A stretch of 64,000 bases of DNA, taken from positions 96,001 through 160,000 of the forward strand of contig RDOB01000002.1 in the NCBI GenBank assembly GCA_011364965.1, in the 5' to 3' direction. Position 1 is the stretch's first letter. Each line of letters begins with the position of its first letter. The notes beneath the pieces are model-generated. The model worked only from the letters and a program-made list of their open reading frames with translations, was not told where the DNA came from and did no database searches. This DNA comes from Candidatus Heimdallarchaeota archaeon (lineage in GTDB: Archaea; Asgardarchaeota; Heimdallarchaeia; Hodarchaeales; Hodarchaeaceae). The position numbers were made by a program, and so were the translations under genes. Of the stretch, positions 4,462 through 54,335 are shown one piece after another.

Positions 4462-4636
4462 TGCGATACCCTAATCGTTCCAAGACAATTCTCAGATATT
4501 AAACAAATATTCCTTTTCACTGCAGATATAAAGACATTAGGTTTCATATATTAATGCTAGGAGACAAGCATGGATATAGCAGATTCAAAATCTGTTTTTG
4601 CTCAAAATTTGTTCGATTTACTTGGTGTTTAATTTA

Positions 4637-8171: not shown

Positions 8172-8879
8172 TTATCTTTCTAAATAATCAATCAAACTTC
8201 TCATTGATATTTCAGGCTTTTCCAAATAGAGAAGAATACGATCATCTTCTTGGCTTATTTCTTCTACTGAAAATATTTTCTGTTTTGAATCTTCTCTTAA
8301 GACACCTAAGACTCTAATGTTAGGAATTTTAATTTCTTCCACTGATTTATTAATTAAATTCTTGGGTACTGGAATTGCTATAACTGGTGGTTTTGATAAT
8401 TGAAGATTCATTCTGTTATATAGGGCATTAACAATTTGGTTTAGATTGTCAACTATAATGATTTGCCCCTGTTTTTGGTTTGCTAGATATTGAACAAAGG
8501 GTGGAGCAAATTGTGCTAATAAAATAACTTTTAGATCCTGTCGAGGAAGGAATGAAAAAATATTTTGAATTACTATTGGATCCTCGTGGAGGATTATAAC
8601 CTTTTCAGCATTCTGAAAACCTATTGTCTCATATAAATTTCGTTTTCCATATTCCTCTTTTTCTTCCTCATAAAGGACGTTAATCTTATCCTTAACTTCT
8701 TCAATCCAAGCTAATTTTTTATCAGAGATGAGGGCAAACTTGGTTTCCGCACCAATTGAAATAATTTGTTCAATGAATGCTTCTGCAAAAATATTGCTTC
8801 CAAAAACGAAGATATTGCTTTCTTGTTCTTCTGCTTTTTCAGCAAATTTTCTAATTCGTCGTCTTTTAAAGAAACTCAT
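8172..8879 (-). CDS. Soluble RCK (TrkA-N/TrkA-C-like) domain protein
   Basis: IFVFGSN..AE and IGFQNAEKVIIL motifs; clear paralogue of the C-terminal part of the upstream gene; TAATG overlap. Confidence 0.6.
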   Translation of the reverse strand: MSFFKRRRIRKFAEKAEEQESNIFVFGSNIFAEAFIEQIISIGAETKFALISDKKLAWIEEVKDKINVLYEEEKEEYGKRNLYETIGFQNAEKVIILHEDPIVIQNIFSFLPRQDLKVILLAQFAPPFVQYLANQKQGQIIIVDNLNQIVNALYNRMNLQLSKPPVIAIPVPKNLINKSVEEIKIPNIRVLGVLREDSKQKIFSVEEISQEDDRILLYLEKPEISMRSLIDYLER

Positions 8880-10090
8880 TAAATTTCCTCACCTTTGTCT
8901 ACTATTGCGATAATGGAGTTTTCTGCTGTTTTTTTCTCTTTTTTATTTTTCTTCTTGGTTTTAGGATGTGAGGGGAGTTCTGTAACCACACGATTTGTTA
9001 GTTTCATATAATAATTTGTATAGTAGTAGATTAGAACCCGATCTCCTAATTTCAAAGTTTCAGATGGGTTAAGAAAGTCCTCTCCTCTTTTTATCATTAA
9101 TACTTTCTGTTTTATTAAATCTGATGTCATAGTTTCTCCTGTATGACCAATATAATTTCTCGGTACATCAATTTCAACAACGGGGGGATATTGAAAATCT
9201 AAACTAAGGGATATAACTAGTCCTTGAATTGTCGTATCAAGATCTTCAATGATTGTCAGGTTTTCATCGTTGACAAGTTCACTAAAAACAAATGCTGGAG
9301 CATATTGTGATAAGAGAATAATCTCCACATCGGGTCTTACTCGTCGAATATTGGTAAGAATATTTTGATTCAATTCCACATTTTCTGTTAAAATCATAAC
9401 TCGACTCGCATTTTTGAATCCAATTATTTCATACAAATTTGGCTTTTCTATCTCCTTCAAATTCTCAACGATATATATATCAATAAGTGATTTTAATTTT
9501 CTAACCCACAATAAATCCACATCTGCTATTAGGGATACTCTTTCTTCATAACCGAATTGATGGACCATCTCAAACAAAAACTGTTCAGCGGGTCGTGATG
9601 TACCAAATATGTACGTTACGTCTTTTCTTGTATTTACTTTATCGCGATATTTCATTATGGGGGATTTAACCATTAATCGAATAATTACAGTTCCAACTCC
9701 TATTAAACCCGCAGCCCATCTAAGAACTGTACCATTGAAAATCCAACCATTTGGTTTTATGAGATTAATATGTAGGTAATCCCATGCGAGGAATGGATCT
9801 CCAGGAATAAGGCCCAAGAGAAATGGGACTCCCCAAATTAATAATATCAGGAATACTGCAAGAATGGCTCCTATCATTAAAAATAGAATGAATAGATCTT
9901 GTAAAGGAAGAAAATACTTTAGCTCACGAATCACAACTCTAAATACAAATCTAATATTTGCATTAATAGTTGTTAAATTAAAATTTAGTTGACGTAAGTT
10001 ATCTTTCAATGTTCTTTTTGGGAGTTTCTTCTTTCCCTCTTGTTTCTTATCTATTGTTTCACCATAAGAGATGGATTCAACTTCATTCAT
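8879..10090 (-). CDS. Membrane-anchored RCK-domain protein (about 2 TM plus TrkA-N/TrkA-C-like)
   Basis: Two hydrophobic segments, then YIFGTS..AE, IGFKNASRVMILTENVELN and IKRGEDFLNPSETLKLGDRVLI. Confidence 0.65.
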   Translation of the reverse strand: MNEVESISYGETIDKKQEGKKKLPKRTLKDNLRQLNFNLTTINANIRFVFRVVIRELKYFLPLQDLFILFLMIGAILAVFLILLIWGVPFLLGLIPGDPFLAWDYLHINLIKPNGWIFNGTVLRWAAGLIGVGTVIIRLMVKSPIMKYRDKVNTRKDVTYIFGTSRPAEQFLFEMVHQFGYEERVSLIADVDLLWVRKLKSLIDIYIVENLKEIEKPNLYEIIGFKNASRVMILTENVELNQNILTNIRRVRPDVEIILLSQYAPAFVFSELVNDENLTIIEDLDTTIQGLVISLSLDFQYPPVVEIDVPRNYIGHTGETMTSDLIKQKVLMIKRGEDFLNPSETLKLGDRVLIYYYTNYYMKLTNRVVTELPSHPKTKKKNKKEKKTAENSIIAIVDKGEEI

Positions 10091-12426: not shown

Positions 12427-14421
12427 TTGTCTTCAGAATATGGTGCAAGCTCAATTCAAGTACTTGAGGGGCTCGAAGCTGTTCGACGGCGTCCTGCCAT
12501 GTATATTGGCAGCATTGATGATTACGGTCTACATCACTTAGTTTGGGAGATCGTTGACAATTCAATCGATGAAGCTATGGCAGGTTTCTGTGATAGAATC
12601 AAAGTAATTCTTGGTCAGACTGAACGAGGACTTGAATCTGTTACAGTTCAAGATAATGGGCGTGGAATTCCTACTGAACCACATCCTCATTATAATATGT
12701 CATCCTTGGAATTGGTTACAACTCGACTTCACTCTGGAGGGAAATTCGATCATTCCTCTTATAAAGTAAGTGGAGGATTGCATGGGGTTGGAATTGCGGT
12801 TGTTAATGCATTATCCAGTTGGATGCAAGTAAAAGTAAAAAGAAATGGTAAAATTTTAATGCAAGAATACGTCCGTGGTGAAACTATTTCTCATGGTTTA
12901 ATCGAAGTGAAGGAAAACTGGGATTACAAGAGTGGTACACATACAACTTTCATCCCAGATCCTGATATATTTGAGACAGTACATTTTGATATAAACCCTA
13001 TTCGAAATCGTCTTAGAGAATTAGCTTTTCTTAATAAAGGCCTCACTATAACTCTTATTGATGAAAGAAAACCTAGAGATGATGATAAGGAGGAATCGAA
13101 ATCAGATATTCCTGATGAAGTTACTGAAGAAACTGAAAAACAAAACCGATGGATTTTTCACTATGATGGAGGAATAAAAGCTTATGTAGAACAGCTCGCC
13201 ACGAATCGCTTACATGAAGACTTACCTTATTTTGATGAGACAATAGAAACTACACAAGTTGAAGTTTCTCTTGCATACGATAATTCCGAACGCGATCTAA
13301 TCTATACATTTACAAATAACATTAATACACGTCATGGGGGAACTCATTTATCTGGATTTAAATCGGGTTTAACAAGAGCGATTAATTCTTATGCTTTGAA
13401 AAATGACCAATTAGTTAAAAATTCTCATTTAAAAAAGGAGCTTAAAGATAAAAGAAGTATATTTACTGGGAATGATGTTAGAGAGGGATTAGTTGCTGTT
13501 GTTTCTGTCAAAGTAATAAATCCACAATTTGAAGGACAAACTAAAACTAAGTTAGGAAATAGTGAAGTGAAAGGAGCAGTAGAAAGCTGTTCCTATGAGA
13601 ATATCTTGAAATTCCTTGAAGAACATCCATTAAGCGCTAAAGCAATAATCGAAAAATGCGAAGCTGCAGCTACATTAAGAATGAAGTATCGACAACTTCG
13701 TGATGCGGTACGAAAAACTCAAGTTAAAGGTACTGGGAAATTAGTTGATTGTGCTGTTACTGATCCTGCTCAAAGAGAGTTATTTTTAGTGGAGGGCGAT
13801 TCTGCTGGAGGAAGCGCAATTGAAGGCCGATTTAGCGAGTTTCAAGCGATCCTTCCTCTTCGTGGAAAAGTAATTAATGTAGAAAAAGCTAGATTAGAGA
13901 AAGCGATGAGAAATAAAGAAATTTTGGAAATTATTCGCGCGGTGGGAGGAGGATATAGGGAAAATTTTCAAATAGAAAATGTACGTTATCATAAAGTGAT
14001 TTTATTGATGGATGCGGATATTGATGGTCATCATATTGTTTGTTTATTACTTACATTTTTCTTCCGTTATATGCCCGAGCTTATTGACGAAGGTTATTTG
14101 TACATCGCTCAACCTCCATTATTCCGACTGAAAAAGGGAAATAAAGAAGTATATGTGCTTTCAGAGAAAGAAAAAAATGAAATCACAACAGAATGGGGAA
14201 GTAGGGTTGAAATTAGTCGATTCAAGGGACTCGGAGAAATGAATCCTATTCAATTAAGAAATACTGTAATGGATCCCAGTAATCGAACTCTTCTCCAAGT
14301 TACTAGGGAAAATATCATTGACGCAGAACACATATTTAAAACATTAATGGGCGATGAAGTTGCACCTAGAAGGGAGTTCATCGAATCACATGCCTTAGAG
14401 GCGGAAAATCTAGACTTTTAA
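12427..14421 (+). CDS. gyrB: DNA gyrase subunit B
   Basis: Motifs LEGLEAVRRRPAMYIG, EIVDNSIDE, DNGRGIP, GGLHGVG, VEGDSAGG, PLRGK, MDADIDG and RFKGLGEM. Confidence 0.97.
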   Translation: MSSEYGASSIQVLEGLEAVRRRPAMYIGSIDDYGLHHLVWEIVDNSIDEAMAGFCDRIKVILGQTERGLESVTVQDNGRGIPTEPHPHYNMSSLELVTTRLHSGGKFDHSSYKVSGGLHGVGIAVVNALSSWMQVKVKRNGKILMQEYVRGETISHGLIEVKENWDYKSGTHTTFIPDPDIFETVHFDINPIRNRLRELAFLNKGLTITLIDERKPRDDDKEESKSDIPDEVTEETEKQNRWIFHYDGGIKAYVEQLATNRLHEDLPYFDETIETTQVEVSLAYDNSERDLIYTFTNNINTRHGGTHLSGFKSGLTRAINSYALKNDQLVKNSHLKKELKDKRSIFTGNDVREGLVAVVSVKVINPQFEGQTKTKLGNSEVKGAVESCSYENILKFLEEHPLSAKAIIEKCEAAATLRMKYRQLRDAVRKTQVKGTGKLVDCAVTDPAQRELFLVEGDSAGGSAIEGRFSEFQAILPLRGKVINVEKARLEKAMRNKEILEIIRAVGGGYRENFQIENVRYHKVILLMDADIDGHHIVCLLLTFFFRYMPELIDEGYLYIAQPPLFRLKKGNKEVYVLSEKEKNEITTEWGSRVEISRFKGLGEMNPIQLRNTVMDPSNRTLLQVTRENIIDAEHIFKTLMGDEVAPRREFIESHALEAENLDF

Positions 14422-14426
14422 TAAAA

Positions 14427-16940
14427 TTGGTTGAGAATAACATGAGTAGCAATATTAAAATTACTCCTATTGAAAAAACAATGTCAAAAAGCTATTTAGA
14501 GTATTCGATGTCAGTTATAACTAGTAGAGCCTTGCCCCACGTTCGAGATGGACTAAAACCAGTTCATCGACGAATTTTCTGGGCTATGCATAATTTGGGT
14601 TTGGTTCATTCGAAACCACCAAGAAAGTGCGCTCGTACAATAGGAGAGACACATGCTAAATATCACCCACATGGAGAAACAGCAGTTTATGATGCATTAG
14701 TGCGAATGGCCCAACCTTTTTCATTAAGATATCCATTAATCGAGGGTCAGGGAAATTTTGGAAGCATGGATGGACAACCTCCTGCTGCCCAACGGTATAC
14801 TGAAGCAAGAATGCAGGAAATTGCTGGTGAATTGTTAAAAGATATCGAAAAAGAAACTGTTGACTTTGTTGATAATTTTGACGGTTTAGATAAAGAACCA
14901 GTGGTCTTACCTGCTAGAATTCCAAATCTATTAATTAATGGAGTGATGGGGATTGCAGTAGGTATGGCAACATCAATGCCTCCCCATAATCTGAGTGAGA
15001 TCTTAAATGGTGTAATTGCAACAATTAAAAATCCTGATATCACGATTAAAGAGTTGATGAATCACATACCTGGTCCAGACTTTCCTACTGGAGGGGTTAT
15101 TTATGGTACAGCTGGGATAAAAGAGGCCTATCATACAGGCACTGGAAGTGTAATTCTCCGAGCTAAGTATGAAATTGTCGAGACCAAATCAAAAACCCAA
15201 ATTATAGTAACTGAAGTTCCTTATCTTGTTAAACGTCAAGATACGATTGAACAGAGAGGATTGGTCGATGTAGTACAAAAATTAAAGGATGATGGAAAAT
15301 TTCCTGAACTTGGGAAGATTAAAAATGAATCGAATATCATTCATGGTACTAGAATAGTAATCAACGTAAAACAAACTGCTAATTTAGATATTGTCCTCAA
15401 TCAATTATTTAAATATACGCCAATGCAGACATCCTATTCTATCAGAAATATGGTTCTTGTTGATGAGCGTGTAGGGGATGAGATAAAGTTTAGGCCAAAA
15501 AATCTGAATATAAAGGAATTAATAACTCAATTTATTGATCATAGGAAGGAAGTTGTATATCGAAGAACTCAATTTGATTTAAGAAAGGCGCGCGAGAGAG
15601 CTCATATATTAGAAGGGAGAAAAGTAGTTGTGGAAAACATTGATGAGGTAATTCGAATTATACGTGGTTCTGCTACTGGTTCCGATGCTCAAGAAGCATT
15701 AATTGAAAAATATTCATTCACCGAAATACAAGCCAGAGACATTCTTTCTTTACCTCTACGTAGTTTGACACGATTTGATAGAGAAAAGATTATTCAGGAA
15801 TACGAGGAAGTACTTAAGGCGATTCAAGAATACGAGGAAATTTTAGCTAGTGAACAGCGCGTGTTAGATATAATAATCACAGAAACAGAGGAAATAATAA
15901 AGAGATATGGGGATGCTCGTAAAACTGAAATTCTCCGAGATGATTCTGAAGATTTTCAGGATTGGACTGGGAAAACAGAGGAAGATTTTATTACCAAAGA
16001 GGATATTGTAGTTACGTTAACTCAAAATGGTTATATTAAAGCAATCTCTGCTGAAGTATATAACAGCCAAAGAAGAGGAGGGAAGGGGATAAAATCTATG
16101 GAGCTAGGGAAGGATGATTTTTTGCTAGAGATGATAGTTGCTTCAACTCATGATACAATTCTATTCTTTACAACAAGCGGAAAAGTCTACCGAGCTAGAG
16201 GATTTGAAATTCCTCGGTCAAAACAAAGAGTAACCAAGGGTACAAATATTGTAAATCTTTTAAAGATGGAACCAGACGAGGAAATTGAAACATTAATTCC
16301 TATTTCGGATTTTGATGAAACAAAATATTTGATATTAGCAACGAAAAATGGATTGATTAAAAAAACATCATTAACTGATTATTCTAACATTCGAACCACA
16401 GGTATTATTGCAATTCAGCTTCGGGAGGATGATCAAATCGTTGGGGTAAAAATAACAAACGGAAATGATGCAATTATACTAGCAACCGCTGATGGAAAAG
16501 CAATACGATTCCCGGAGAAGGATGTTCGTCCTGTTGGCCGAGGAAGTATTGGAGTTCTTGGCATACGTCTAAATGAAGGAGATTCGGTAGTAGATATAGC
16601 AATTGTTGATGAAACAAAAACTTTACTTACTGTGTGTCAAAACGGATATGGAAAAAGATCTAAATATGACCAATACAGAACAACTCGTCGTAATGGAAAA
16701 GGAATCATTAATATCAAGACTACTGAAAGGAACGGACCTGTTATTGCAGTGAAAAGTGTATCAAATAAAGATCAGCTTCTTATGGTAGCAACTGATGGCA
16801 AATTAATCCAGATTCCAATCAAAGGAATACGAACTATCGGAAGAGCTACTTCTGGAGTTACTCTGATGAAATTAGATTACGAAGAAGGTGTTAGTATTTC
16901 CTCGATTGCTATACTCTCTGATGAGGAAGGTGCTGAATGA
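14427..16940 (+). CDS. gyrA: DNA gyrase subunit A (start may be ATG 14442)
   Basis: DGLKPVHRR, YHPHG, catalytic AAQRYTEAR, GyrA-box QRRGGKG and beta-pinwheel CTD repeats. Confidence 0.97.
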   Translation: MVENNMSSNIKITPIEKTMSKSYLEYSMSVITSRALPHVRDGLKPVHRRIFWAMHNLGLVHSKPPRKCARTIGETHAKYHPHGETAVYDALVRMAQPFSLRYPLIEGQGNFGSMDGQPPAAQRYTEARMQEIAGELLKDIEKETVDFVDNFDGLDKEPVVLPARIPNLLINGVMGIAVGMATSMPPHNLSEILNGVIATIKNPDITIKELMNHIPGPDFPTGGVIYGTAGIKEAYHTGTGSVILRAKYEIVETKSKTQIIVTEVPYLVKRQDTIEQRGLVDVVQKLKDDGKFPELGKIKNESNIIHGTRIVINVKQTANLDIVLNQLFKYTPMQTSYSIRNMVLVDERVGDEIKFRPKNLNIKELITQFIDHRKEVVYRRTQFDLRKARERAHILEGRKVVVENIDEVIRIIRGSATGSDAQEALIEKYSFTEIQARDILSLPLRSLTRFDREKIIQEYEEVLKAIQEYEEILASEQRVLDIIITETEEIIKRYGDARKTEILRDDSEDFQDWTGKTEEDFITKEDIVVTLTQNGYIKAISAEVYNSQRRGGKGIKSMELGKDDFLLEMIVASTHDTILFFTTSGKVYRARGFEIPRSKQRVTKGTNIVNLLKMEPDEEIETLIPISDFDETKYLILATKNGLIKKTSLTDYSNIRTTGIIAIQLREDDQIVGVKITNGNDAIILATADGKAIRFPEKDVRPVGRGSIGVLGIRLNEGDSVVDIAIVDETKTLLTVCQNGYGKRSKYDQYRTTRRNGKGIINIKTTERNGPVIAVKSVSNKDQLLMVATDGKLIQIPIKGIRTIGRATSGVTLMKLDYEEGVSISSIAILSDEEGAE

Positions 16941-19900
16941 TGACTGACGCTGTTAAATCATCAAAAAAAGGGAAAATAACAAAGGAAAAGGTTGTAAAAA
17001 GATCTGCAGCTGATTTCTTTCAAGATAATAAAGCAATTGCGGGTTTCGACAACACCATGCGTGTAGTTTTCACCAGCGTTAGAGAACTTGTTGAAAATGG
17101 GTTGGATGCTGCAGAAAGAATAGGGAAACTTCCAGAACTTATTATTACAATCTCAAGACTCAAAAAGGAGGAAATTGCAAAGCTATTAAATGTTAGTTCT
17201 TTTGATTCATCAGAGAAACTTGATTTCATTCGACTTACTGTGCGAGATAATGGAAGTGGAGTTCAATCTGAATTTGTGCCTCCTTTATTTGGAAGAGTGT
17301 TGACAGGGAGCAATTATGGCGCTAGACAGTCACGCGGTCGATTTGGTTTAGGTGCCAAAATGGTGTTGCTTAATGCCATGTCCTCCGTTGATTTACCTCT
17401 TATCGTCAAATCGAAACATATGAACGAAGATTTTACTAGTTATCATGAAATTATGATAAATTTAGCCGAAAATGAGCCAATTATTCTCTTGAAACGAGAG
17501 ATCCCTCAAGAAACTCCTGAAGCAATCCCTGAATCAGGGACGGAAGTGAGTGTTACTTTCACTGGTTCTTGGAATTTAGCCTCCCGTTGGATAAGGGAAT
17601 ACTTCTCTCAACTTAGTTTAATAACACCTTACGCAAGGATTCTTGTTACTTATCCTGATAGTGAATCTCCTGAAGAAATGCCCCGAGTAGTTGAGGATAT
17701 GCCTGGTTATCCCCAAATTGCCAAAGTTCATCCTTGGGGAACAGATATAACACAATTTAAACGGGAAATTGCTGTTACTAAAAGTCCAACCGTGGAAGAG
17801 TTTTTACAAGATCATTTTCAAGGGATTGGGAAAAAAACAGCCCAAGAATTTCTTGAGTACGTTAAAATTGATAACACTAAATCGCCACATGACCTTAGTG
17901 CTAGTGATATTCGCCGAATTGTGCATGAAGGTTTTGTTATGCCAGATTCTGACCCTAAAAAGCGCCGAGATCAGAAATATTTCCCTTTCAAAAGGCCATC
18001 TGGGGATTCATTGAGTCCTCTAAGCGCAGAATTACTTGCGAAAGGGATTCAAAAAGAATTGGATCCTCAATTTGTAAGATCAGCAACTGGTGATATTTCT
18101 GCATATTCTGGTCATCCATTTATTGTTGAAGCAGCTTTAGCTTATGGGGGTCCTATACTTTCTAAGGAAGAGGGGAGCAAATCAGGAACACCAAGAATTT
18201 ATAGATATGCAAACCGTATACCATTATTATTCGGAGCAGGTAATGATATTATCACAAAATGCGTTCAAAAAATGAACTGGAGAAACTACAAGATTAACAT
18301 CAATAAAGCTCCAATAGCAATCGTAGTATCTGTTGTTTCATCCAAAATTCCTTTTCCCGAGACAAGTAAAGAATATATCGCTGATGTTGATGAGTTAAGA
18401 AAAGAAATTTACAAAGTGCTGAAGAAACTAGCCCGTGGGCTTGGAACGCACTTAGGAAAAGCTGAGAGGGAACGAAGGGAGAAACAAAGGCAATCTAGAT
18501 TCGAGAGTGCAGCGCCTAAGGTTATAGACAATCTTAGTAAAATTCTTGAGACAACGGATACCCCTTTTCTTCTCAAATCTCCAGAAGAAATAGCTAAATT
18601 AGAAAAAGCTCTTGCTTCTGCAGAAACCAAGCTTATACGTCGAAAATATCCCCCTAGCCCTGCGATTTCCAGTATTGGTGAGTGGTTACCGATGACCACA
18701 TACGCCACATTAGTGGAAAATGGTATACAAACTATTTACCAGTTTTTAAGGGCACCAAACGTTGAATTAATGTCTATTACTGGTTTATCAGAAAAAAGAG
18801 TAGCAGAAATAAAACGTTTAACTGTTACTAGCCAAAATCGTGCTACTCAGTCCCCTTCTCTCCGTGAGTTTGAGATATTTGATAAACGACTAGAAAACGA
18901 CTTTAATAAATATCTCGAGGCACCTAGGATCCATAGAGCTTTAACTAAGCGCTGGTTGGTGTCAGCGCTTGATTTATTTGCTACACCTATTACGCAACTC
19001 CGAATGGTGGAATCATTAGCTGAAAAGTTAATCTACGAATCCAAGATTCAAATGATTAACACTTTAATCGCTGAGAGTACAATACCAGAGATCGAATTCG
19101 ATACACTTCCTTGGATGACAAACGATCTCCAAAAATCTTTAAAATCTGCAAAAATTCACACATTATTTGAATATTTAGCTAGTTTCCCTGAGAAATTGGC
19201 CGATTTACCTTACCTAAATGAAATATTGATTGAAAAAATAAAACAAGAGATACGGGAAGGAATTAAACAAGGATATATTGATGGAGAAAAGGTAATTGGT
19301 GCAGCTACTTTTGAGTGGATGGACTACCGTGTCACACCTAGATTGAGAGGGAGGAAGGTTTCTAAAATTATAGAATTCCTTGAAACATCTAATGAAAAAC
19401 TATCAGAGCTTTCAGAACTGACTGAAAATTTAATTAATAAGTCAAAAGATGAAATCAAACCTCATCTAGCTCGATTCAATGATGAGAATTCATTGAACAC
19501 TCTTCCAGGTATTAATGAAACCATGAAAGCTGATTTTATGCGAGTAGAGGTAATCGGATTCATTGATTACTTATCTAAACCTAATTCGGAACTGGTATTT
19601 GTACGGGGGCTAGTTGATAATCTTATTATTCAGAAACAAGATGAAATTATGGATCAGGTAAGTCAGCAACATGAATTATTCCCAATAAAACACGCTTGGT
19701 GGCTGGATAGAGAGTTAGAGAATAAATTAAAATCAATAGGAATTAATTCAGTTTTTGATTTCGTTCGGTATCCCACCCAACAACTAGCAGAAATAAAAAA
19801 TTTGGATTACCAAACCCTTGAGACCATAAAAAATACTTATGGGACTCCTATACCTTTGATAAACGATCAAGATAAGGTAAAACTAGACAATCAGCAGATA

Positions 19901-22900
19901 ATCTGCCTAGAAGAATTAGAATTTATAGATGATTTCTCAAAAATCAAACCTGAAGAACTCTCGAAGAAATTAAAAGATTTGATGATATATATTCAAGCTC
20001 CAATTTGTTACTTGCCTATTCCAAGTAAATTTTATCAAATTCTTCATCATTTAGGTGTATCTCAAATTTTTGATTTCTTAATCTGGCCTGACCATGATTT
20101 ACACCATAAAGGAGGACTTCCTTACAAATTAATAGAGGAAATCAAAAGTGAAATATCTTTGGACATGATTCAAGACTTAATTAAATCAAAAAGTGTTTTA
20201 GTATCTGCTATTTCAAATAATCTTGACTCAAAATTACTAGATAAAATACCAGCTGATTTTACTTTACAGGAGTTGTATTATAGATTACCATACGCAGATG
20301 ATCGTCTAGCAAACCTTCAGTTAAGTAAGACAGAGATTGAAACTCTTATTGATATTTTTCTTACTCCTATATCAAGGATTCCTTCCATAAAACCCAAATT
20401 TATTAACAAATTAAGAAATATCAGTATAAATACATTTATTGATCTAATAACATGGGAAAGAGAAGTAATTGCTAAAATTATTGGAAGAGATGAGAAATAT
20501 ATTCAATCAATTTTTGAGAATTTTGAACAATTTACTTCTGGAAAACCTCTATTCAATTTAGGAGTTTTTAATCAAACTGAAATCAAAGCGTTAATCTCTC
20601 AAGGATTCAAAACAGTTGAGGATCTTTATTTTCGTGCAAATCATGAAACATTTGGTACTATGGGCGTAAAATGGAAGAAAATTGAAAGATACCAGAGAAT
20701 TCTAGAAACTCCAGTAGCAATGCTTCAAACAAGATCAGAACAAGGTAAAATTTCTCACGATGCGTTGGAAAGATTAGCAGATAATGGTATAGACCAAATA
20801 ATCAAGCTTGTTTATTGGCCAGAGAATGAATTACAATCTATCCTAAAAATACCCGAAAAACGAATTATTGAATTGAAAGATTCTATTGCTATTAAAGAAC
20901 ATGGCATGCCTTTGACCAAGGTGTGTGGGTATAATAAAAAAACTCTGAATACCCTTCTAAGTTACGGTATCGAGACAATTGAGGATCTCTATTTTAGCGC
21001 GTCCGAAGATATGGTTGACGAGGATGATGATATCGAGTGGGATTACGTTAAACAGGCAATTGAAGCACTTGACATACCTATTTCATTTTTAGATGGCATT
21101 ATTGCTACAAAATATATTGAAAAATTACAGGGTAAAAAAATCGACACGATAATACGCTTTTTGATAACATCAGAAGAGGAGCTAAGTGAGATCTTGGGTA
21201 CTCCTATAGACAATGTGGAGAATTTAAGACAGAAAATCAACCTTATTCGTTTTAGGGAATCAACTGAAACTTCTATTTCAATTTTGGAGGGATTAACAAG
21301 AAAACAACTCAGAGTTCTTTCTGAAGAGAATATATCCTCAATTTACGATTTTATAATTGCAAATGACGAATCCTTGGCAAGTATATTAGAGATGGATTTA
21401 GAACAAGTGAGTTCAATGAAAAATAATTTGAATTATGATAGTATTCGCATTATTAAAGAGGAAAAAATGGTTCCTCTAGTCAAGATATCGCTTTTTGATA
21501 AAAGAATCGTAAAGCAGCTAGCACGTATGGGGATTGAAAGTTTAGCTGATCTTTATTATGTAGCTACTCCTAAAACGTTTGAAGAAAGCTCAATAAGTTG
21601 GCAAATGATCCAAGATGCAAGAGCAATACTCGATTTGCCAATAGAAATCATTCCTGAAATCACAAAAAAGGAAATAAATACCTTAAAAAAGGCGAAAATT
21701 AAAATAATATTTGATTTACTCATGGAAAGTCCTGAAGAATTATTTAAAAGAACCAATATAGATGCAGAAACAATTGAATCATTACAGAATTCAATAATTA
21801 TTGATGAACTAATAACAATTCTAAAACGTTTATCAGTAGATAAATTCAATTTTCCTAAAGAGTATTTTGCTGAAATAAAGAAAAATAAGCTTGATTCAGC
21901 TTATGATTTAATTTCTTATGAGAATGAAGATCTTTTTCTCAGTCAAGAAGGAAAGAAAAAAGTAAGAATCGATAAAAATAGTTGGGTGGATGTTTCCTCA
22001 ATCCTATCTATACCTCTTCGTCTTTTTATGAATTTTGAAAATGAAATTATGAAGGGTTTAAAGCGAAAGCGTATTATAAACTTAAGAGATGCATATGCAG
22101 CTTCTGAAGAAAAGTTTGATGGTTTATTTGAGGATGGAGGATTGGATTTCCTGGAAACATTGCGTGTTTTAGATTTTAAAGAAATTAGAGATTTTCTGAG
22201 AATATCAATATGTTTCACACCTCATATCTCTCCTGAATGGCTTTTTTCCTTAATAAACAATTCAATTTATACCATAGAAGACATTTTATCTTGTGAACTA
22301 AGAGATCTTACTAAAATTCTGAATTCTTCTTTACCAAGAACTAGAAACTTCATAAAAGAAATATCTATGAATAGTACATTAAAATGCCTTGAGGAAGAGC
22401 TTATTCCTCTAGATAAACTCTCTTCAATCTTCTCATCAGAAATAATAACCAAATTAGAGAGTATAGGGTATAATTCGTTACAAGACTTTATCATTCGGAT
22501 AACAGATGCTACTGATATCGATGGAGTTTCAGATGTTCTAAAAATCCTTAATTCACCCGTTAATAGATTATCCGATGATATACCCCTTAGCGAAATAAGG
22601 AAACTATCTCAACAAGGAATTTCCACAATTAGAGATTGGTTAATTGTACAAAATTCAGTTATATCAGACATAATTGATATTGAAAAAGACATTATTTACG
22701 AATTAAAGCGTTCATTTGATTTTAAGAGCATAAGTGAAGTTTCAGATGTAGAAACCTCCTTAAATGATTACATTGAGAAAGGGTACATCGATTTTGACGA
22801 ATTAAATAAATTAGGGATTCGTACTATCGAAGATTTGCAATTTATTGAAATAGATACACTCTCTGCTTCAGAAGAATTTTTATCTCGTATAAGATCATTA

Positions 22901-23881
22901 AAAGATGCATTGACCTCCTCACTAGCCTATTATACGCGTCTTCCTCCTGAATATGTTATCCCTTTGGCGTTAAATGGAGTCACATCTGTAGCTCGTCTGA
23001 TTAGAACAGAATACTCTCAAATTGAGAATCCTATAAATATCACAAATGAAAAATATAGTGCAGCAAGAGAAACAGTCAATCTAATTGATATAATTACCCA
23101 TAAGAAAAGTGATTCTGAATTTAGAGTTCGGTTATCATCTCTTAAAGCCTTTACTTCAAAACAGCTTGAACAGATTCAGAAACTTGGCTATGATAATGTG
23201 ATAGACCTTTATTTCATGCTTGATACCGAACAGGTACCTAAGTCTTTAGTAGGGTCAATCGAATCAACAAAAACAGTTTTAGAAAAACCCCTAGCTCTAC
23301 TTCCCTCGGTTCAAGAGGCATTTCCTCAAAAGATACCTCTTCTTCACAATGCTGGAATAACCTCGATAATTGAATTCTTATTCTGGCCAAAAGACGAATT
23401 GGCTGAGCTTCTTGAAATAAAACGATATGAATTGTCGCGCTATAGAAAAATCGACATTGGAGCTCTTAGGAGAAAGAGAAACTTGGGAACACCAATAGAA
23501 AACTTCCCAAGAATTCCAGAAGAGCTTATTGAGACTTTTAAACAGATAGGAGTAGATAATATAGAAGATTTATATTTTCTTTTTACAAAATATCCTAATT
23601 TAATACCAGATGATGTTATCCCAAGAAAAATCATAACTACATGTATCAATGACCTCGAGAGCCCCGTTGTTAAATTACATGGACTACCCATACCAGTGGC
23701 ACAAGAATTAGTAAAAAAAGGGATCACTAGAATCATTGATTTCTTATATTGGCCTATGGACGACCTAAAACCTGTTTATGGTTTATCAGAGGCGAAAATT
23801 AAAAAAATAAAGGACTCAATTAGATTGAGGGAGAAATCTGACGTTGTTGGTAGACTAGACTCTTACATGAGGCAGGATTGA
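16937..23881 (+). CDS. top6B: DNA topoisomerase VI subunit B with a ~1750-aa C-terminal array of HhH-like repeats
   Basis: GHKL motifs RELVENGLDA, DNGSG, QSRGRFGLG and GTEV; H2TH (FQGIGKKTA); transducer RYANRIPLLF and PFPETSKEYIA; then about 28 LxxxGIxTIxDL repeats. Confidence 0.95.
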   Translation: MMTDAVKSSKKGKITKEKVVKRSAADFFQDNKAIAGFDNTMRVVFTSVRELVENGLDAAERIGKLPELIITISRLKKEEIAKLLNVSSFDSSEKLDFIRLTVRDNGSGVQSEFVPPLFGRVLTGSNYGARQSRGRFGLGAKMVLLNAMSSVDLPLIVKSKHMNEDFTSYHEIMINLAENEPIILLKREIPQETPEAIPESGTEVSVTFTGSWNLASRWIREYFSQLSLITPYARILVTYPDSESPEEMPRVVEDMPGYPQIAKVHPWGTDITQFKREIAVTKSPTVEEFLQDHFQGIGKKTAQEFLEYVKIDNTKSPHDLSASDIRRIVHEGFVMPDSDPKKRRDQKYFPFKRPSGDSLSPLSAELLAKGIQKELDPQFVRSATGDISAYSGHPFIVEAALAYGGPILSKEEGSKSGTPRIYRYANRIPLLFGAGNDIITKCVQKMNWRNYKININKAPIAIVVSVVSSKIPFPETSKEYIADVDELRKEIYKVLKKLARGLGTHLGKAERERREKQRQSRFESAAPKVIDNLSKILETTDTPFLLKSPEEIAKLEKALASAETKLIRRKYPPSPAISSIGEWLPMTTYATLVENGIQTIYQFLRAPNVELMSITGLSEKRVAEIKRLTVTSQNRATQSPSLREFEIFDKRLENDFNKYLEAPRIHRALTKRWLVSALDLFATPITQLRMVESLAEKLIYESKIQMINTLIAESTIPEIEFDTLPWMTNDLQKSLKSAKIHTLFEYLASFPEKLADLPYLNEILIEKIKQEIREGIKQGYIDGEKVIGAATFEWMDYRVTPRLRGRKVSKIIEFLETSNEKLSELSELTENLINKSKDEIKPHLARFNDENSLNTLPGINETMKADFMRVEVIGFIDYLSKPNSELVFVRGLVDNLIIQKQDEIMDQVSQQHELFPIKHAWWLDRELENKLKSIGINSVFDFVRYPTQQLAEIKNLDYQTLETIKNTYGTPIPLINDQDKVKLDNQQIICLEELEFIDDFSKIKPEELSKKLKDLMIYIQAPICYLPIPSKFYQILHHLGVSQIFDFLIWPDHDLHHKGGLPYKLIEEIKSEISLDMIQDLIKSKSVLVSAISNNLDSKLLDKIPADFTLQELYYRLPYADDRLANLQLSKTEIETLIDIFLTPISRIPSIKPKFINKLRNISINTFIDLITWEREVIAKIIGRDEKYIQSIFENFEQFTSGKPLFNLGVFNQTEIKALISQGFKTVEDLYFRANHETFGTMGVKWKKIERYQRILETPVAMLQTRSEQGKISHDALERLADNGIDQIIKLVYWPENELQSILKIPEKRIIELKDSIAIKEHGMPLTKVCGYNKKTLNTLLSYGIETIEDLYFSASEDMVDEDDDIEWDYVKQAIEALDIPISFLDGIIATKYIEKLQGKKIDTIIRFLITSEEELSEILGTPIDNVENLRQKINLIRFRESTETSISILEGLTRKQLRVLSEENISSIYDFIIANDESLASILEMDLEQVSSMKNNLNYDSIRIIKEEKMVPLVKISLFDKRIVKQLARMGIESLADLYYVATPKTFEESSISWQMIQDARAILDLPIEIIPEITKKEINTLKKAKIKIIFDLLMESPEELFKRTNIDAETIESLQNSIIIDELITILKRLSVDKFNFPKEYFAEIKKNKLDSAYDLISYENEDLFLSQEGKKKVRIDKNSWVDVSSILSIPLRLFMNFENEIMKGLKRKRIINLRDAYAASEEKFDGLFEDGGLDFLETLRVLDFKEIRDFLRISICFTPHISPEWLFSLINNSIYTIEDILSCELRDLTKILNSSLPRTRNFIKEISMNSTLKCLEEELIPLDKLSSIFSSEIITKLESIGYNSLQDFIIRITDATDIDGVSDVLKILNSPVNRLSDDIPLSEIRKLSQQGISTIRDWLIVQNSVISDIIDIEKDIIYELKRSFDFKSISEVSDVETSLNDYIEKGYIDFDELNKLGIRTIEDLQFIEIDTLSASEEFLSRIRSLKDALTSSLAYYTRLPPEYVIPLALNGVTSVARLIRTEYSQIENPINITNEKYSAARETVNLIDIITHKKSDSEFRVRLSSLKAFTSKQLEQIQKLGYDNVIDLYFMLDTEQVPKSLVGSIESTKTVLEKPLALLPSVQEAFPQKIPLLHNAGITSIIEFLFWPKDELAELLEIKRYELSRYRKIDIGALRRKRNLGTPIENFPRIPEELIETFKQIGVDNIEDLYFLFTKYPNLIPDDVIPRKIITTCINDLESPVVKLHGLPIPVAQELVKKGITRIIDFLYWPMDDLKPVYGLSEAKIKKIKDSIRLREKSDVVGRLDSYMRQD
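18650..23820 (+). repeat. Protein-level tandem array of about 28 degenerate ~55-70 aa HhH-like units in Top6B
   Basis: Recurring [P/S]-hydrophobic start, L-x-x-x-G/K-I-x-[TS]-I-x-[DE]-[LF] core, e.g. ENGIQTIYQFL, SIGINSVFDFV, SQGFKTVEDLY, SYGIETIEDLY, KLGIRTIEDLQ, NAGITSIIEFL, KKGITRIIDFL. Confidence 0.85.
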
Positions 23882-25296
23882 ATAGTATGACTGAAGTACA
23901 AAGAATACCAATTCAATTAGAAGATTATGCTTTTACTGAACAGTTAAAAAAAATCCTTGTTCCAAAAGATGAATCTTTGAAGGGTATAAAGCAAATAGTT
24001 CAAACTGAGTTGAATCTTAAAAGAACGAAATATATCCTATTTTTTGGAGCAAAAAAAGGAAAAAATTTTCAGGAACTTACTAATAAGGATATGAGTCTAT
24101 TTTGGGAGCTAGCAGAGGCTAAAAATGTCGTCATTCGAGTTCGTAAGCTAGTAGATTTGTCAAAGGTCAAGAAATTAAGAGAAAATGCAGTTCAAGAATT
24201 AATTGATCTTCCAGTTTCTGTTTTAAAAGTTGATAATGTTACTCCACGAGAAACTAAAGCCAGATTGATAGATGTTGCTAAAACTTTTTTAGCAGAAATC
24301 GCAGAGGATCCAAAAAGCGCAGCTTTTCGCATTCCTTCACGGAGTTCTGAAAACGTTGGTTATGATGACACCTCAAAAATGGTTTTGCTTGGGTCTCAAG
24401 TTGTTGATCGGCAATTTCGTCATCTTAGTAGTGTTCAGAGCGTTGTACAACTAACAGGATTGATGCGTTATATTATAGAAATTTTGGAGACTGAAAAGCA
24501 TGCTACAAAACGACATCTTTTTTATCGTGATGTGAATCTTTTCAGTAATCAACGAGTTTCTGATAGCTTGATTGAGGATTTAGGGGCATTACTTCGTGTT
24601 TCACGTAATTCAATGAATGTAATTGCCTCTGCAAAAGGAAAAGTAATTGGTCGACTTTCATTTACCGAAGGTGGGGATCGTATTGATTGTACTCAAGGTT
24701 TAGGAGGTCATGCAATTACTCCAATGCTAGATCAAGTAGAGGATTTTGAGAGTGATGCTGAATTTGTTTTGGTCATAGAAAAAGATGCTGTCTTCCAAGA
24801 TCTTGCGGAAGACAAATTTTTTAATTATTTGCCTAGTATTCTAATAACTGCATCAGGACAACCAGATATGGCCACTAGAATGTTTATAAAACAAATTTAT
24901 GAAACCCTACAATTGCCAATACTAGGTTTTCTTGATGCTGATCCCTATGGATTAGATATATTGCGTGTATATTCAATTGGAAGTAAAGCTTTGAGTTTTG
25001 AAAGTGTTGAATTAGCAGTACCTGACATTCGATGGCTAGGTCTGCTTCCTTCAGATATCAAAGAGTATGCAATACCAAAATCTGTCTTGATTAAAATGAC
25101 TGAAAATGACATGAAACGAGCTGATGATCTATTGCAAGAAGATTTCGTCAAGTCTCGTCCACAATGGCAAGAACAAATTGAAATAATGAAAGTAACTGGG
25201 ATGAAAGCCGAGATACAAGCCTTAGCAAGTAAGAATTGGAGATATATGACAGAATCTTACCTACCATCAAAGATTGATGGTGGAAATTTCATATAA
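23878..25296 (+). CDS. top6A: DNA topoisomerase VI subunit A (Spo11 family) with N-terminal extension; start may be ATG 23887
   Basis: Catalytic Tyr region TKRHLFYRD; TOPRIM VIEKDAVF and DADPYG; GQPD; KAEIQAL. Confidence 0.95.
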   Translation: MNSMTEVQRIPIQLEDYAFTEQLKKILVPKDESLKGIKQIVQTELNLKRTKYILFFGAKKGKNFQELTNKDMSLFWELAEAKNVVIRVRKLVDLSKVKKLRENAVQELIDLPVSVLKVDNVTPRETKARLIDVAKTFLAEIAEDPKSAAFRIPSRSSENVGYDDTSKMVLLGSQVVDRQFRHLSSVQSVVQLTGLMRYIIEILETEKHATKRHLFYRDVNLFSNQRVSDSLIEDLGALLRVSRNSMNVIASAKGKVIGRLSFTEGGDRIDCTQGLGGHAITPMLDQVEDFESDAEFVLVIEKDAVFQDLAEDKFFNYLPSILITASGQPDMATRMFIKQIYETLQLPILGFLDADPYGLDILRVYSIGSKALSFESVELAVPDIRWLGLLPSDIKEYAIPKSVLIKMTENDMKRADDLLQEDFVKSRPQWQEQIEIMKVTGMKAEIQALASKNWRYMTESYLPSKIDGGNFI

Positions 25297-26209: not shown

Positions 26210-26782
26210 TTAGCGCTGATCTCTGTAATATACGGCTCTTCTAATTGCTGAAGCAAATGCAGTTCCAACTCCTTGTGAGGTGACTGCAGATGTTGAGAAA
26301 TATGTAGCTTGCATTTTATCTGCGAATTTTAATCCAATATCATCACTAACTTTCCGTAAGTTTGATAAATCAATTTTATTACCTATGAGAACAGCTGGAG
26401 TATCAGGCAGTGTTTTTTTTACTTCTTTTACCCAACTTGGCAGAGATAATACAGTGTCTTCGCGAGTAACGTCAAATACATAGATAATGGCATGAGCACC
26501 TTCATAAAATAGTGGACGGACTTTATCAAACGCTGGTTGACCTGAAAGATCCCAAAAAATAGCTGTTGTCGTTTTCTCTATATCTTTTGCCGTACGTAAC
26601 TTGATAAATGAGATATCTGCTCCAGCAGTAGGTTTATGTTCGAAATTTCTATTTGTGAAAACAGAAACCAACTGAGTTTTACCAACCAAGGCATCCCCAG
26701 CAACTACTATTTTATATTGAGTGTAATGCGGAATTTCAAAAAGAATATCATCAGCTGACATGATTTGTGAATCTCCAGACAC
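26210..26782 (-). CDS. Rab-like small GTPase
   Basis: Motifs GDALVGKT, PTAG, WDLSGQ, FYEGA, NKID and TSA. Confidence 0.9.
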   Translation of the reverse strand: MSGDSQIMSADDILFEIPHYTQYKIVVAGDALVGKTQLVSVFTNRNFEHKPTAGADISFIKLRTAKDIEKTTTAIFWDLSGQPAFDKVRPLFYEGAHAIIYVFDVTREDTVLSLPSWVKEVKKTLPDTPAVLIGNKIDLSNLRKVSDDIGLKFADKMQATYFSTSAVTSQGVGTAFASAIRRAVYYRDQR

Positions 26783-53096: not shown

Positions 53097-54335
53097 TCAT
53101 TCTTCCTCTTCACCCTTAAGAAAAGAAATTTTGCCAATAACAGCCTGATTTAAGTCATCATCAGCGTTTTTTTCACTTTCTTCGTCTTTTTCCTCCTCCT
53201 CTTCTGCTTCGGGTTCTACTTCAGCAGTTTCACTTTCTTCGTCTTTTTCCTCCTCCTCTTCTGCTTCGGGTTCTACTTCAGCAGTTTCACTTTCTTCGTC
53301 TTTTTCCTCCTCCTCTTCTGCTTCGGGTTCTACTTCAGCAGTTTCACTTTCTTCGTCTTTTTCCTCCTCCTCTTCTGATACTGTTTCAATATCTTCTTCC
53401 TCTTCTGATTCCCAATCACCCATCAATCTTCGTAATCTCCAAAGCATTTGAAGTTTTAAACGTCGACTTTCATTGTCAAATCCAAAATCATGAGCAAATT
53501 TTGGTGTTGTTGTGTATACTGATGATCTTGCCCGTGTTTCACCTATTATGTATTCTCTATCTTCAAGCTGTTTACATATTTCATTTATTCGAAGTGGCCC
53601 AATACCTTTTACGATTTTTTTGACCATTGCGACAGATATTGGTTGTCGATAGGCTATCTCGGTTAAGATTCTTCTTACATCTTCTTCCATGAATAGGTGA
53701 GGAACTTGCATTTGAAAAAAATCATGATATAAGGGATTTAATTGAAGCACCCATCGATCCTTTGAAATTTCTTCGATAACTATTGGAGAGTTCTTTTTAC
53801 GATTTCTTGATACTTTTCGGATCGCTCTTTTGACAACAGGGGATTCTTCTTGTAAAAACTCAATTAACTCATCAGCATGAATGGGTCTTCCAATTGAGAA
53901 AAGTGCTCCTTCAATTCTTTCTTCAAGAGTGATTGGCGGTAGTATTCTCTTGGGTTTGAAATATAATTCCAATTTATCTTCTTTTTCTTTCGTTGATTCC
54001 ATAAACATTTCAGGTGAAATGAAATCATCATAAGAGTCAATTTCATTATTTAAGATGCTTTCAATATACCTAGGAGGTGATAAATACTCTGAAACTATGG
54101 ATGTATCTTCTACTATGGTTTCTGGGGAAACTTTTTTTAGGATTTCAAATTTCTCTTCGAATGGCTTTTCTGATGGTAGACTTAAAACTTCATTCGACTC
54201 TTGTGTTGATTCAATTTGAGTAGTACCTTCAGTAGAAACTGGAGATATAACCTCTTTAATAGATTCCTCATCCTCTTCTTTTTTCTTGCTTATTTCTTTC
54301 TTTTCTTTTCCCTTACGTCGAAATAAACGAAACAT
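53097..54335 (-). CDS. scpB: ScpB/Kite-family protein (paralogue 2) with long N-terminal extension and acidic repeat tail
   Basis: Motifs RIEGALFSIGRPI, ILTEIAYRQPIS and YTTTPKFAHDFG. Confidence 0.85.
   Translation of the reverse strand: MFRLFRRKGKEKKEISKKKEEDEESIKEVISPVSTEGTTQIESTQESNEVLSLPSEKPFEEKFEILKKVSPETIVEDTSIVSEYLSPPRYIESILNNEIDSYDDFISPEMFMESTKEKEDKLELYFKPKRILPPITLEERIEGALFSIGRPIHADELIEFLQEESPVVKRAIRKVSRNRKKNSPIVIEEISKDRWVLQLNPLYHDFFQMQVPHLFMEEDVRRILTEIAYRQPISVAMVKKIVKGIGPLRINEICKQLEDREYIIGETRARSSVYTTTPKFAHDFGFDNESRRLKLQMLWRLRRLMGDWESEEEEDIETVSEEEEEKDEESETAEVEPEAEEEEEKDEESETAEVEPEAEEEEEKDEESETAEVEPEAEEEEEKDEESEKNADDDLNQAVIGKISFLKGEEEE
53171..53377. repeat. Perfect 57-bp tandem repeat, about 3.6 copies (encodes EEEEEKDEESETAEVEPEA)
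   Basis: The unit starting tttcactttcttcgtctttttcctcc recurs at 53171, 53228, 53285 and 53342. Confidence 0.95.

Follow-up and report, generated by a model that had tools for sequence, protein, structure and literature searches.

A topoisomerase VI B subunit extended by 28 tandem helix-hairpin-helix-fold domains in a member of the Heimdallarchaeia

Introduction

Canonical archaeal topoisomerase VI (Topo VI) B subunits, such as those of S. shibatae (2zbk_B, 530 residues) and M. mazei (2q2e_B, 621 residues), share a core made of a GHKL ATPase domain, an H2TH domain and a transducer domain, and are encoded next to top6A. Beyond this core they carry either no extension or a single immunoglobulin-like domain of about 100 residues, as in the C-terminal domain (CTD) of the M. 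mazei protein. Here we describe a top6B gene with the same core and the same neighbour, but which codes for about 1,740 additional residues forming 28 domains of a helix-hairpin-helix (HhH) fold, referred to below as the arm. The gene lies at positions 16937-23881 (+ strand) of a 64,000-nucleotide stretch (the window) from the assembly GCA_011364965.1 of a Candidatus Heimdallarchaeota archaeon of the Hodarchaeales (contig RDOB01000002.1, positions 96,001 to 160,000, forward strand), and is a single open reading frame (ORF) of 2,314 residues with no interruption.

A long tandem array of HhH-type domains is likewise joined to a topoisomerase in Methanopyrus kandleri topoisomerase V (Topo V), a type IC enzyme with 12 tandem (HhH)2 domains, whose arm binds DNA and carries lyase sites. 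Topo V belongs to another enzyme class, however, and gave no significant structural match to the arm of the giant Top6B, which is acidic and devoid of the canonical GxG hairpins. At the level of the single unit, both fold and sequence profile resemble the N-domains of RAD51 paralogues, Rad51/RadA, the C-terminal domain of the RNA polymerase alpha subunit (alphaCTD) and NusA AR1/AR2 (Pfam RAD51D_N, RNA_pol_A_CTD and HHH_XRCC3_RpoA). These domains occur in one or two copies per protein, while the giant Top6B has 28 of them in tandem on a type IIB topoisomerase. In plants, the Topo VI core is accompanied by the extra factors RHL1 and BIN4; these are separate polypeptides, whereas the arm is fused.

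The M. mazei Top6B, with its extra C-terminal domain, comes from a gyrase-encoding lineage (PMC9348778). Villain et al. (2022) noted lineage-specific C-terminal extensions ('a globular domain') in Top6B of gyrase-encoding Asgard archaea, the array itself not being described, and proposed that Topo VI became specialised after the arrival of gyrase (PMC9348778). A 2025 study reports multiple Top6A/B pairs in Asgard archaea and does not mention HhH domains (PMC12680538), and a 2024 review (PMC11894792) and a 2024 survey of Topo VI (PMC11302465) are silent on the arm. Our searches of the literature on Topo VI, Asgard archaea and HhH domains found no paper describing a Top6B with an HhH arm, in agreement with the preliminary description of this stretch, which knew of no such architecture. 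As detailed below, the conserved Top6B with its arm of 28 HhH-fold domains is real, and it is apparently undescribed in the literature.

Results

The giant ORF begins with a complete Top6B

Residues 1-571 (16937-18649, + strand) comprise the GHKL ATPase, the H2TH segment, the transducer (residues 354-518) and a C-terminal helix and linker (residues ~498-571). The NCBIfam Top6B equivalog PRK04184 matched residues 13-558 with 442 bits, the cut-off being 274, and the Pfam domain Topo-VIb_trans matched the transducer with 174 bits. Residues 15-556 aligned with the Top6B of S. shibatae (2zbk_B, E = 2e-80) and of M. mazei (2q2e_B, E = 1e-63). The GHKL Glu/Asn, the DNGxG box, the GxxGxG ATP lid, the H2TH segment and the switch lysine could all be aligned to 2zbk_B: the motifs ELVENGLDA, DNGSG and GRFGLG correspond to the equivalent motifs of the S. 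shibatae protein, and the lysine of 'TSKEY' falls on its K427. Residues 498-571, which align to the canonical Top6B C-terminal helix, are nearly invariant among 26 orthologues; modelled alone, they had a low predicted local distance difference test score (pLDDT). The core has a net charge of +9 and an isoelectric point (pI) of 9.1. The preliminary description had announced an uninterrupted giant ORF opening with a complete Top6B, and this is indeed what we found: the core is a complete Top6B with its ATPase motifs intact, and ATP-dependent strand passage is predicted from its sequence.

Independent assemblies and homologues reproduce the ORF

The extreme size of the protein could raise the suspicion of a chimeric assembly, of a read-through of two genes or of a neutrally drifting repeat expansion, as could the middle of the arm (residues ~1620-1920), where orthologues are merely 33-39% identical. 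From the local base composition, the probability of finding 2,314 stop-free codons by chance is ~1e-81. The stretch is present in twenty public runs from seven studies, among which no RNA run was listed. Logan contigs, assembled independently in two studies, cover positions 16800-24000 with zero differences, and a mangrove run, itself carrying no flag as a possible source, spans the junction of core and arm (17900-20070), again with zero differences. The preliminary description had left room for a chimera at this junction, where the independent assemblies proved identical. One sequencing run gave no coverage and another was mostly uncovered over 20174-24000; these are holes in coverage and no evidence either way. 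Because independent metagenome assemblies reproduce the gene, the ORF is not an assembly artefact.

We found about 78 homologues, full-length or partial and from many samples, with lengths of 1,300-3,917 residues; nearly all of them are labelled Hodarchaeales, Heimdallarchaeota, Kariarchaeaceae or Promethearchaeota. Full-length homologues, which the preliminary description had suggested looking for, thus exist in Heimdallarchaeia as giant orthologues that are public and annotated just as 'DNA topoisomerase VI subunit B'. Most orthologues are of near-constant length (2,311-2,318 residues), and the arm is almost free of insertions and deletions and contains no repeat at the DNA level. The homologues, their alignment and the independent assemblies already contradict an explanation by artefact or decay, which we regard as extremely improbable.

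The arm is made of 28 diverged units with a RAD51-N/alphaCTD-like fold

Residues 572-2299 (18650-23833, + strand) consist of 28 tandem units of about 62 residues, with a RAD51-N/alphaCTD-like HhH fold and at least two subtypes. The arm was folded with AlphaFold2 as two overlapping halves, using the alignment of the 26 orthologues. Mean pLDDT was 76.6 and 76.4 for the two halves (80-90 inside the domains), with predicted template modelling scores (pTM) of 0.50 and 0.54. Units were counted from the recurring helix-hairpin-helix signature in these two models and from an anchored sequence stack, which gave 28 units with a mean period of 61.7 residues and bore out the 'about 28' repeats proposed before. 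An iterated self-profile (hidden Markov model) shrank to a 38-residue core and recovered just 16 units; the unit count was therefore taken from the structure models. The units are strongly diverged, with mutual identities of 16-27%. Protein self-BLAST found no significant internal match in the arm, because BLAST culls internal matches and the repeats are too diverged, and Tandem Repeats Finder, run on the DNA, found no tandem repeat array in it. At least two subtypes of unit were recognised, one resembling alphaCTD and having a second hairpin, with the consensus P-I-x-x-L...L-x-x-x-G-I-x-x-I-x-D-F-L...E-x-L-x-x-I...I-x-x-I-K, the other being of an 'EDLYF' type. The repeat consensus of the preliminary description holds for the commoner type of unit.

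A profile made from twelve units matched the alphaCTD of T. thermophilus RNA polymerase (1doq, E = 1e-6), as well as a NusA AR domain (1u9l, E = 1e-4) and RAD51D-N. Superposition of single units (VIA) gave the N-domains of RAD51C (8faz_C, Z 9.1) and RAD51D (9q25_D, Z 9.0), with root-mean-square deviations of 1.2-1.4 Å over 54-55 residues, followed by the C-domain of AF1548 (Z 8.6), and further matches to Y-family polymerase thumbs, alphaCTD, NusA-AR2 and SAM domains. Pfam assigned RAD51D_N (111 bits) and RNA_pol_A_CTD (36.8 bits) to the arm. The units thus display the five-helix, ~60-residue fold of the RAD51-N/alphaCTD class (PF21794, PF03118, PF26169), and the kinship with RAD51-N, alphaCTD and NusA-AR domains that had been suggested earlier is confirmed.

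Foldseek, when run with the whole model against the PDB, returned no match at E < 0.04. Fragments of Topo V (5hm5, 4gfj, 8df9 and 2csb) came at ranks 2, 5, 13 and 15, with E values of 0.05-0.7 and a template modelling (TM) score of 0.08, the model being too long for a fair test. A shape search of the ESM Atlas reached TM scores of just 0.14-0.31 and served solely as a lead to the HhH-Top6A cluster described below, while a feature search of the Atlas gave leads below 0.9 only. When the host genome was searched with the unit profile, no second protein with an arm unit was found, bar one weak HHH_5 match, and no donor gene. The weakly matching protein (L032:283-1620 (+); G000:C9:644282-645619) has 445 residues and three canonical HHH_5 stretches (89 bits).

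The arm is under strong constraint

Over the 26 orthologues, identity was 80% in the core and 54% in the arm. The gap fraction of the arm was ~0, and the full alignment, of 2,348 columns, contained 34 insert columns. Every unit scored higher against its own orthologue (75-252) than against its best paralogue (29-85). Since the units are closer to their orthologues than to their neighbours, the array is old and has not been homogenised. More distant forms of 2,350-2,460 residues, with 30-34% identity, were collinear from end to end, and in those of 3.5-3.9 thousand residues collinearity covered the core and the initial nine or so units. Units 4, 11-16 and 24-28 form the best-kept blocks, and units 17-23 are the most variable. 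We conclude that the arm is under strong constraint.

Basic patches and a conserved C-terminal peptide

Net charges of the individual units range from -9 to +3, none being strongly basic; units 25, 26 and 28, in the distal part, are net positive. Four short basic patches, with mean net charges of +5.0 to +7.6, are kept in the 26 orthologues. The most proximal one spans residues 658-672. The next, in unit 4 (19328-19372, + strand; residues 798-812, RVTPRLRGRKVSKII), has a mean net charge of +6.1 and invariant T, P, L, R and G residues. The third is found where unit 26 meets unit 27 (23438-23482, + strand; residues 2168-2182; mean net charge +6.4) and includes K and R residues that are invariant. 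The last one, at the end of unit 28 (residues 2287-2301; mean net charge +7.6), runs into the C-terminal peptide, which extends to residue 2314 (23795-23878, + strand, for patch and peptide together). The final 15 residues (2300-2314), RLRRK-x-DV[VL]G[RQK]LD[SA]YM, are kept in the 26 orthologues and were modelled as a helix with a pLDDT of 34-39. The larger forms of the Heimdall group have long basic tails rich in K, S and T, some of which are followed by QKSLNAF or QKSLDEYS. The charge and motif data fit a rod with putative binding sites at its base and tip.

We compared the C-terminal end, [VL]-G-[RQK]-L-D-[SA]-Y-M, with the PCNA-interacting (PIP) box, Q-x-x-[LIM]-x-x-[FY]-[FYLM]. The hydrophobic and aromatic positions fit, and the position of the Gln is occupied by V or L. 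A complex predicted from PCNA residues 1-258 and the last 80 residues of Top6B had a score of 0.02, which speaks neither for nor against PCNA binding. The PCNA of the host, encoded outside the window (L009:1471-2364 (+), G000:C9), has 298 residues and ends in a C-terminal tail of about 40 residues made nearly entirely of D and E, with repeated EDWD motifs. Other members of the genus share this tail, and two relatives from the same order lack it.

Giant top6B lies in an operon with gyrase and top6A

Four densely packed genes follow each other on the + strand in the order gyrB, gyrA, giant top6B and top6A. The first, gyrB (12427-14421, + strand), heads the operon and has the Pfam domains DNA_gyraseB, Toprim, DNA_gyraseB_C and HATPase_c. 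It is followed by gyrA (14427-16940, + strand), with a DNA_topoisoIV match of 497 bits and six DNA_gyraseA_C blades. Reading of the junction showed that the TGA stop of gyrA shares bases with the ATG of top6B (ATGA, 16937-16940). The likely ATG of top6A (23887-25296, + strand; 469 residues) is 5 nucleotides past the top6B stop, a start that is also supported by orthologues of 469 residues. Top6A consists of an extra N-terminal domain (residues 1 to ~118), TP6A_N (65 bits) and Toprim (TOP6A-Spo11_Toprim, 210 bits), and its translation shows the motifs FYRD and DADPYG, in keeping with a 5Y-CAP tyrosine region and a Toprim domain. The host genome (2.97 Mb, 87% complete) gave a single match to PF09239, so that the giant protein is the sole Top6B detected.

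In the genus, gyrA and top6B are neighbours in at least 13 genomes. Linkage of all four genes (gyrBA-top6BA) characterises this genus, and was not seen in another family of the class (f4, see below) nor at two loci of other lineages. A scan for sigma-70 promoters and terminators gave no enrichment over shuffled sequences; the sigma-70 model does not apply to archaea.

Giant Top6B is accompanied by gyrase and by a ubiquitin-like Top6A domain

We surveyed 400 genomes of the phylum for open frames around the transducer, the families being labelled f1-f7 (class of the window), f28 (another class) and f31. In the genus of the window, the transducer ORFs were 2,312-2,346 residues long, and giant ORFs of 2.2-4.3 thousand residues were present in families f1-f6 of the class. 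A giant ORF of ~2,290 residues was also found in f28, while elsewhere in the phylum most ORFs had 500-680 residues. The GyrA CTD was found in 20 of 21 genomes of f1, 2 of 2 of f2, 1 of 1 of f3, 28 of 31 of f4, 3 of 3 of f5 and 8 of 12 of f6. It was not found in any of the 12 genomes of f7, the sole sampled family of the class without the giant form, where Top6B ORFs have ~500 and ~1,105 residues. The 1,105-residue protein (L033:634-3951 (+), G087:C50) contains about eight or nine HhH units of a more canonical kind (HHH_5, 90 bits), and may represent the arm in a short or ancestral state.

The extra N-terminal domain of Top6A (23887-24240, + strand; ~118 residues) is conserved in Hodarchaeales. 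Its homologue in f28 (L034) matched Pfam ubiquitin (2.8e-6) and Rad60-SLD (5.4e-7), and both families were matched by 2 of 11 aligned N-domains. The profile of the domain family matched ubiquitin in the PDB (a single ubiquitin, E ~1e-3). The domain is present in the lineages f1, f4, f5, f6 and f28, which have a giant Top6B. In two f7 genomes, with Top6A ORFs of 376-409 residues, it was not found. Within the class, gyrase and the ubiquitin-like Top6A domain thus accompany the giant size of Top6B.

A different HhH array is fused to Top6A in another Asgard family

In family f31, another Asgard family whose matching ESM Atlas cluster is labelled Thorarchaeota, a long Top6A ORF (658-863 residues) was found in all five sampled genomes. 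The one protein that we read (L035:913-3480 (+), G335:C4; 855 residues) is encoded directly downstream of top6B. Its first 560 residues contain seven h-x-G-h-G hairpins (LPG[VI]G, V[DE]G[IV]G; HHH_5, 148 bits), which make up about four (HhH)2 modules with linkers rich in K, S and T, a net charge of +52 and a pI of 9.9; TP6A_N and Toprim follow. This fusion resembles the giant Top6B in that an HhH array is attached to Topo VI, at the end of Top6A that in canonical structures adjoins the Top6B C-terminus. It differs by the subunit concerned, by its approximately four canonical (HhH)2 modules and by its strongly basic character. The N-terminus of Top6A has thus acquired an HhH array independently. 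In the canonical Topo VI structures (2zbk, 2q2e), the C-terminus of Top6B abuts the Top6A N-terminus, close to the DNA gate. If this contact holds, both fusions put an HhH array beside the DNA gate.

Other features of the window

The window is AT-rich, with ~34% G+C. Downstream of top6A, positions 26210-26782 (- strand) code for a 190-residue small GTPase of the Ras/Roc/Arf family (Pfam Ras, 121 bits), a eukaryotic-signature protein of a kind typical of Asgard archaea. The ORFs at 4598-7522 (+ strand, 974 residues) and 8879-10090 (- strand, 403 residues) had no Pfam match at E <= 0.001. Another ORF, at 53097-54335 (- strand, 412 residues), codes for a protein whose net charge is extreme, at -13.6 per 100 residues.

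Discussion

The data presented in this paper suggest that the giant Top6B serves this organism as the functional B subunit of its single topoisomerase VI. Together with the Top6A encoded downstream, it would form an A2B2 enzyme of ~640 kDa, in which the ATP-driven strand-passage core gains two long, length-constrained arms of 28 HhH-fold domains each, both beginning at the end of a transducer helix. As to the role of these arms, we find it somewhat more probable than the contrary that they act as tethers, i.e. that each is a mostly acidic structural rod or solenoid with binding sites at a few basic patches. The arm would then not be a continuous DNA wrapper, but would bind DNA or a partner near its base, in units 2 and 4, and again at its tip, in units 25-28 and the C-terminal peptide. 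In this way the enzyme would be attached to another stretch of DNA, to chromatin or to a partner protein, which would bias Topo VI toward DNA crossings, for decatenation or bridging, in lineages in which supercoiling has come under the control of gyrase.

Several observations weigh against a tether of this kind. The arm is acidic, with a net charge of -51, a pI of 5.1 and -2.9 charges per 100 residues, compared with a window median of -1.1. The h-x-G-h-G hairpin is absent from residues 572-2314, its sole match in the protein being in the H2TH domain of the core, and the glycine of the first hairpin is kept in just 15 of the 28 units, that of the second in about 6 (by eye). The fold class includes purely protein-binding members, namely NusA AR1/AR2 and SAM domains, and NusA-AR2 and SAM domains were among the VIA matches of the arm units. 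The arrangement of the units in a rod or solenoid comes solely from models with a pTM of 0.50-0.54. The correlations with gyrase and with the Top6A domain reflect few independent evolutionary events. Finally, the array of f31 has no detectable sequence homology to the giant arm; it shows that such an array can serve a purpose at this junction, and does not imply that the arm acts in the same manner.

The main rival to the tether is a protein-protein scaffold or spacer that makes no contact with DNA, and which would recruit or position other factors, or form dimers that shut an additional gate. Candidate partners would be proteins of the replisome, of chromatin or of segregation, perhaps also gyrase or the N-terminal domain of Top6A. 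This possibility, which we consider serious though rather unlikely, accords with the net acidic character of the arm and the loss of the canonical hairpin glycines, with the matches to NusA-AR2 and to many SAM domains at VIA Z scores of 5-7, and with the fact that the units are individually conserved, as expected for distinct docking surfaces. The conserved short linear motif of low pLDDT at the C-terminus and the co-inheritance of the ubiquitin-like Top6A domain with the arm also argue for it. It accounts less well for the conserved basic patches at the base and tip of the arm, for the lysine-rich tails of the related giant forms and for the best structural matches, which are HhH domains of DNA-repair proteins (RAD51 paralogue N-domains, Y-family polymerase thumbs); moreover, no partner was identified. 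The preliminary description inferred a DNA-wrapping or bridging tail and pointed to Topo V; on such a reading, the whole array would serve in DNA binding, wrapping and processivity, perhaps with apurinic/apyrimidinic or deoxyribose-phosphate lyase activity. Tandem HhH-fold domains are indeed fused to a topoisomerase in both cases, Topo V fragments rank high in the Foldseek search, and f31 provides an instance of a truly basic, canonical (HhH)2 array fused to Top6A. The Foldseek matches to Topo V were insignificant, however, as were the HHH_5 stretches in the arm when taken individually, the 65 bits reached by this Pfam family being solely a sum over stretches. The arm shows neither a Topo V-like basic surface along the array nor canonical DNA-binding HhH motifs (PF00633, HHH_5; paired (HhH)2), and no lyase site could be identified in it. 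The acidity of the arm and the lack of canonical GxG hairpins make a continuous Topo V-like wrapper unlikely. We therefore prefer the tether to a DNA wrapper, and consider the latter improbable.

In this lineage an essential enzyme has become four to eight times as large, under strict length conservation. The gain in size is accompanied by gyrase and by a new domain of the partner subunit, and offers a concrete test case for the question raised by Villain et al. (2022), i.e. in what way accessory domains lead a type II topoisomerase to specialise once gyrase, a second such enzyme, is present. Two Asgard lineages appear to have solved a similar problem by placing different HhH arrays on the adjoining ends of the two subunits.

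A bolder and more doubtful proposal, which we put forward tentatively, is that the giant arm, the ubiquitin-like domain of Top6A and the gyrase that is co-encoded in this genus define a distinct class of type IIB enzyme of ~0.64 MDa, in which the two length-constrained arms would serve as rulers or bridges, each keeping a second DNA segment, or a partner from chromatin or the replisome, at a fixed distance from the DNA gate. If this were true, the enzyme would be a chromosome-organising decatenase, with a counterpart, built into the enzyme itself, of the accessory proteins and the chromatin-tethering C-terminal regions found with eukaryotic type II enzymes, and a distinct type IIB class would sit in the archaeal lineage closest to eukaryotes.

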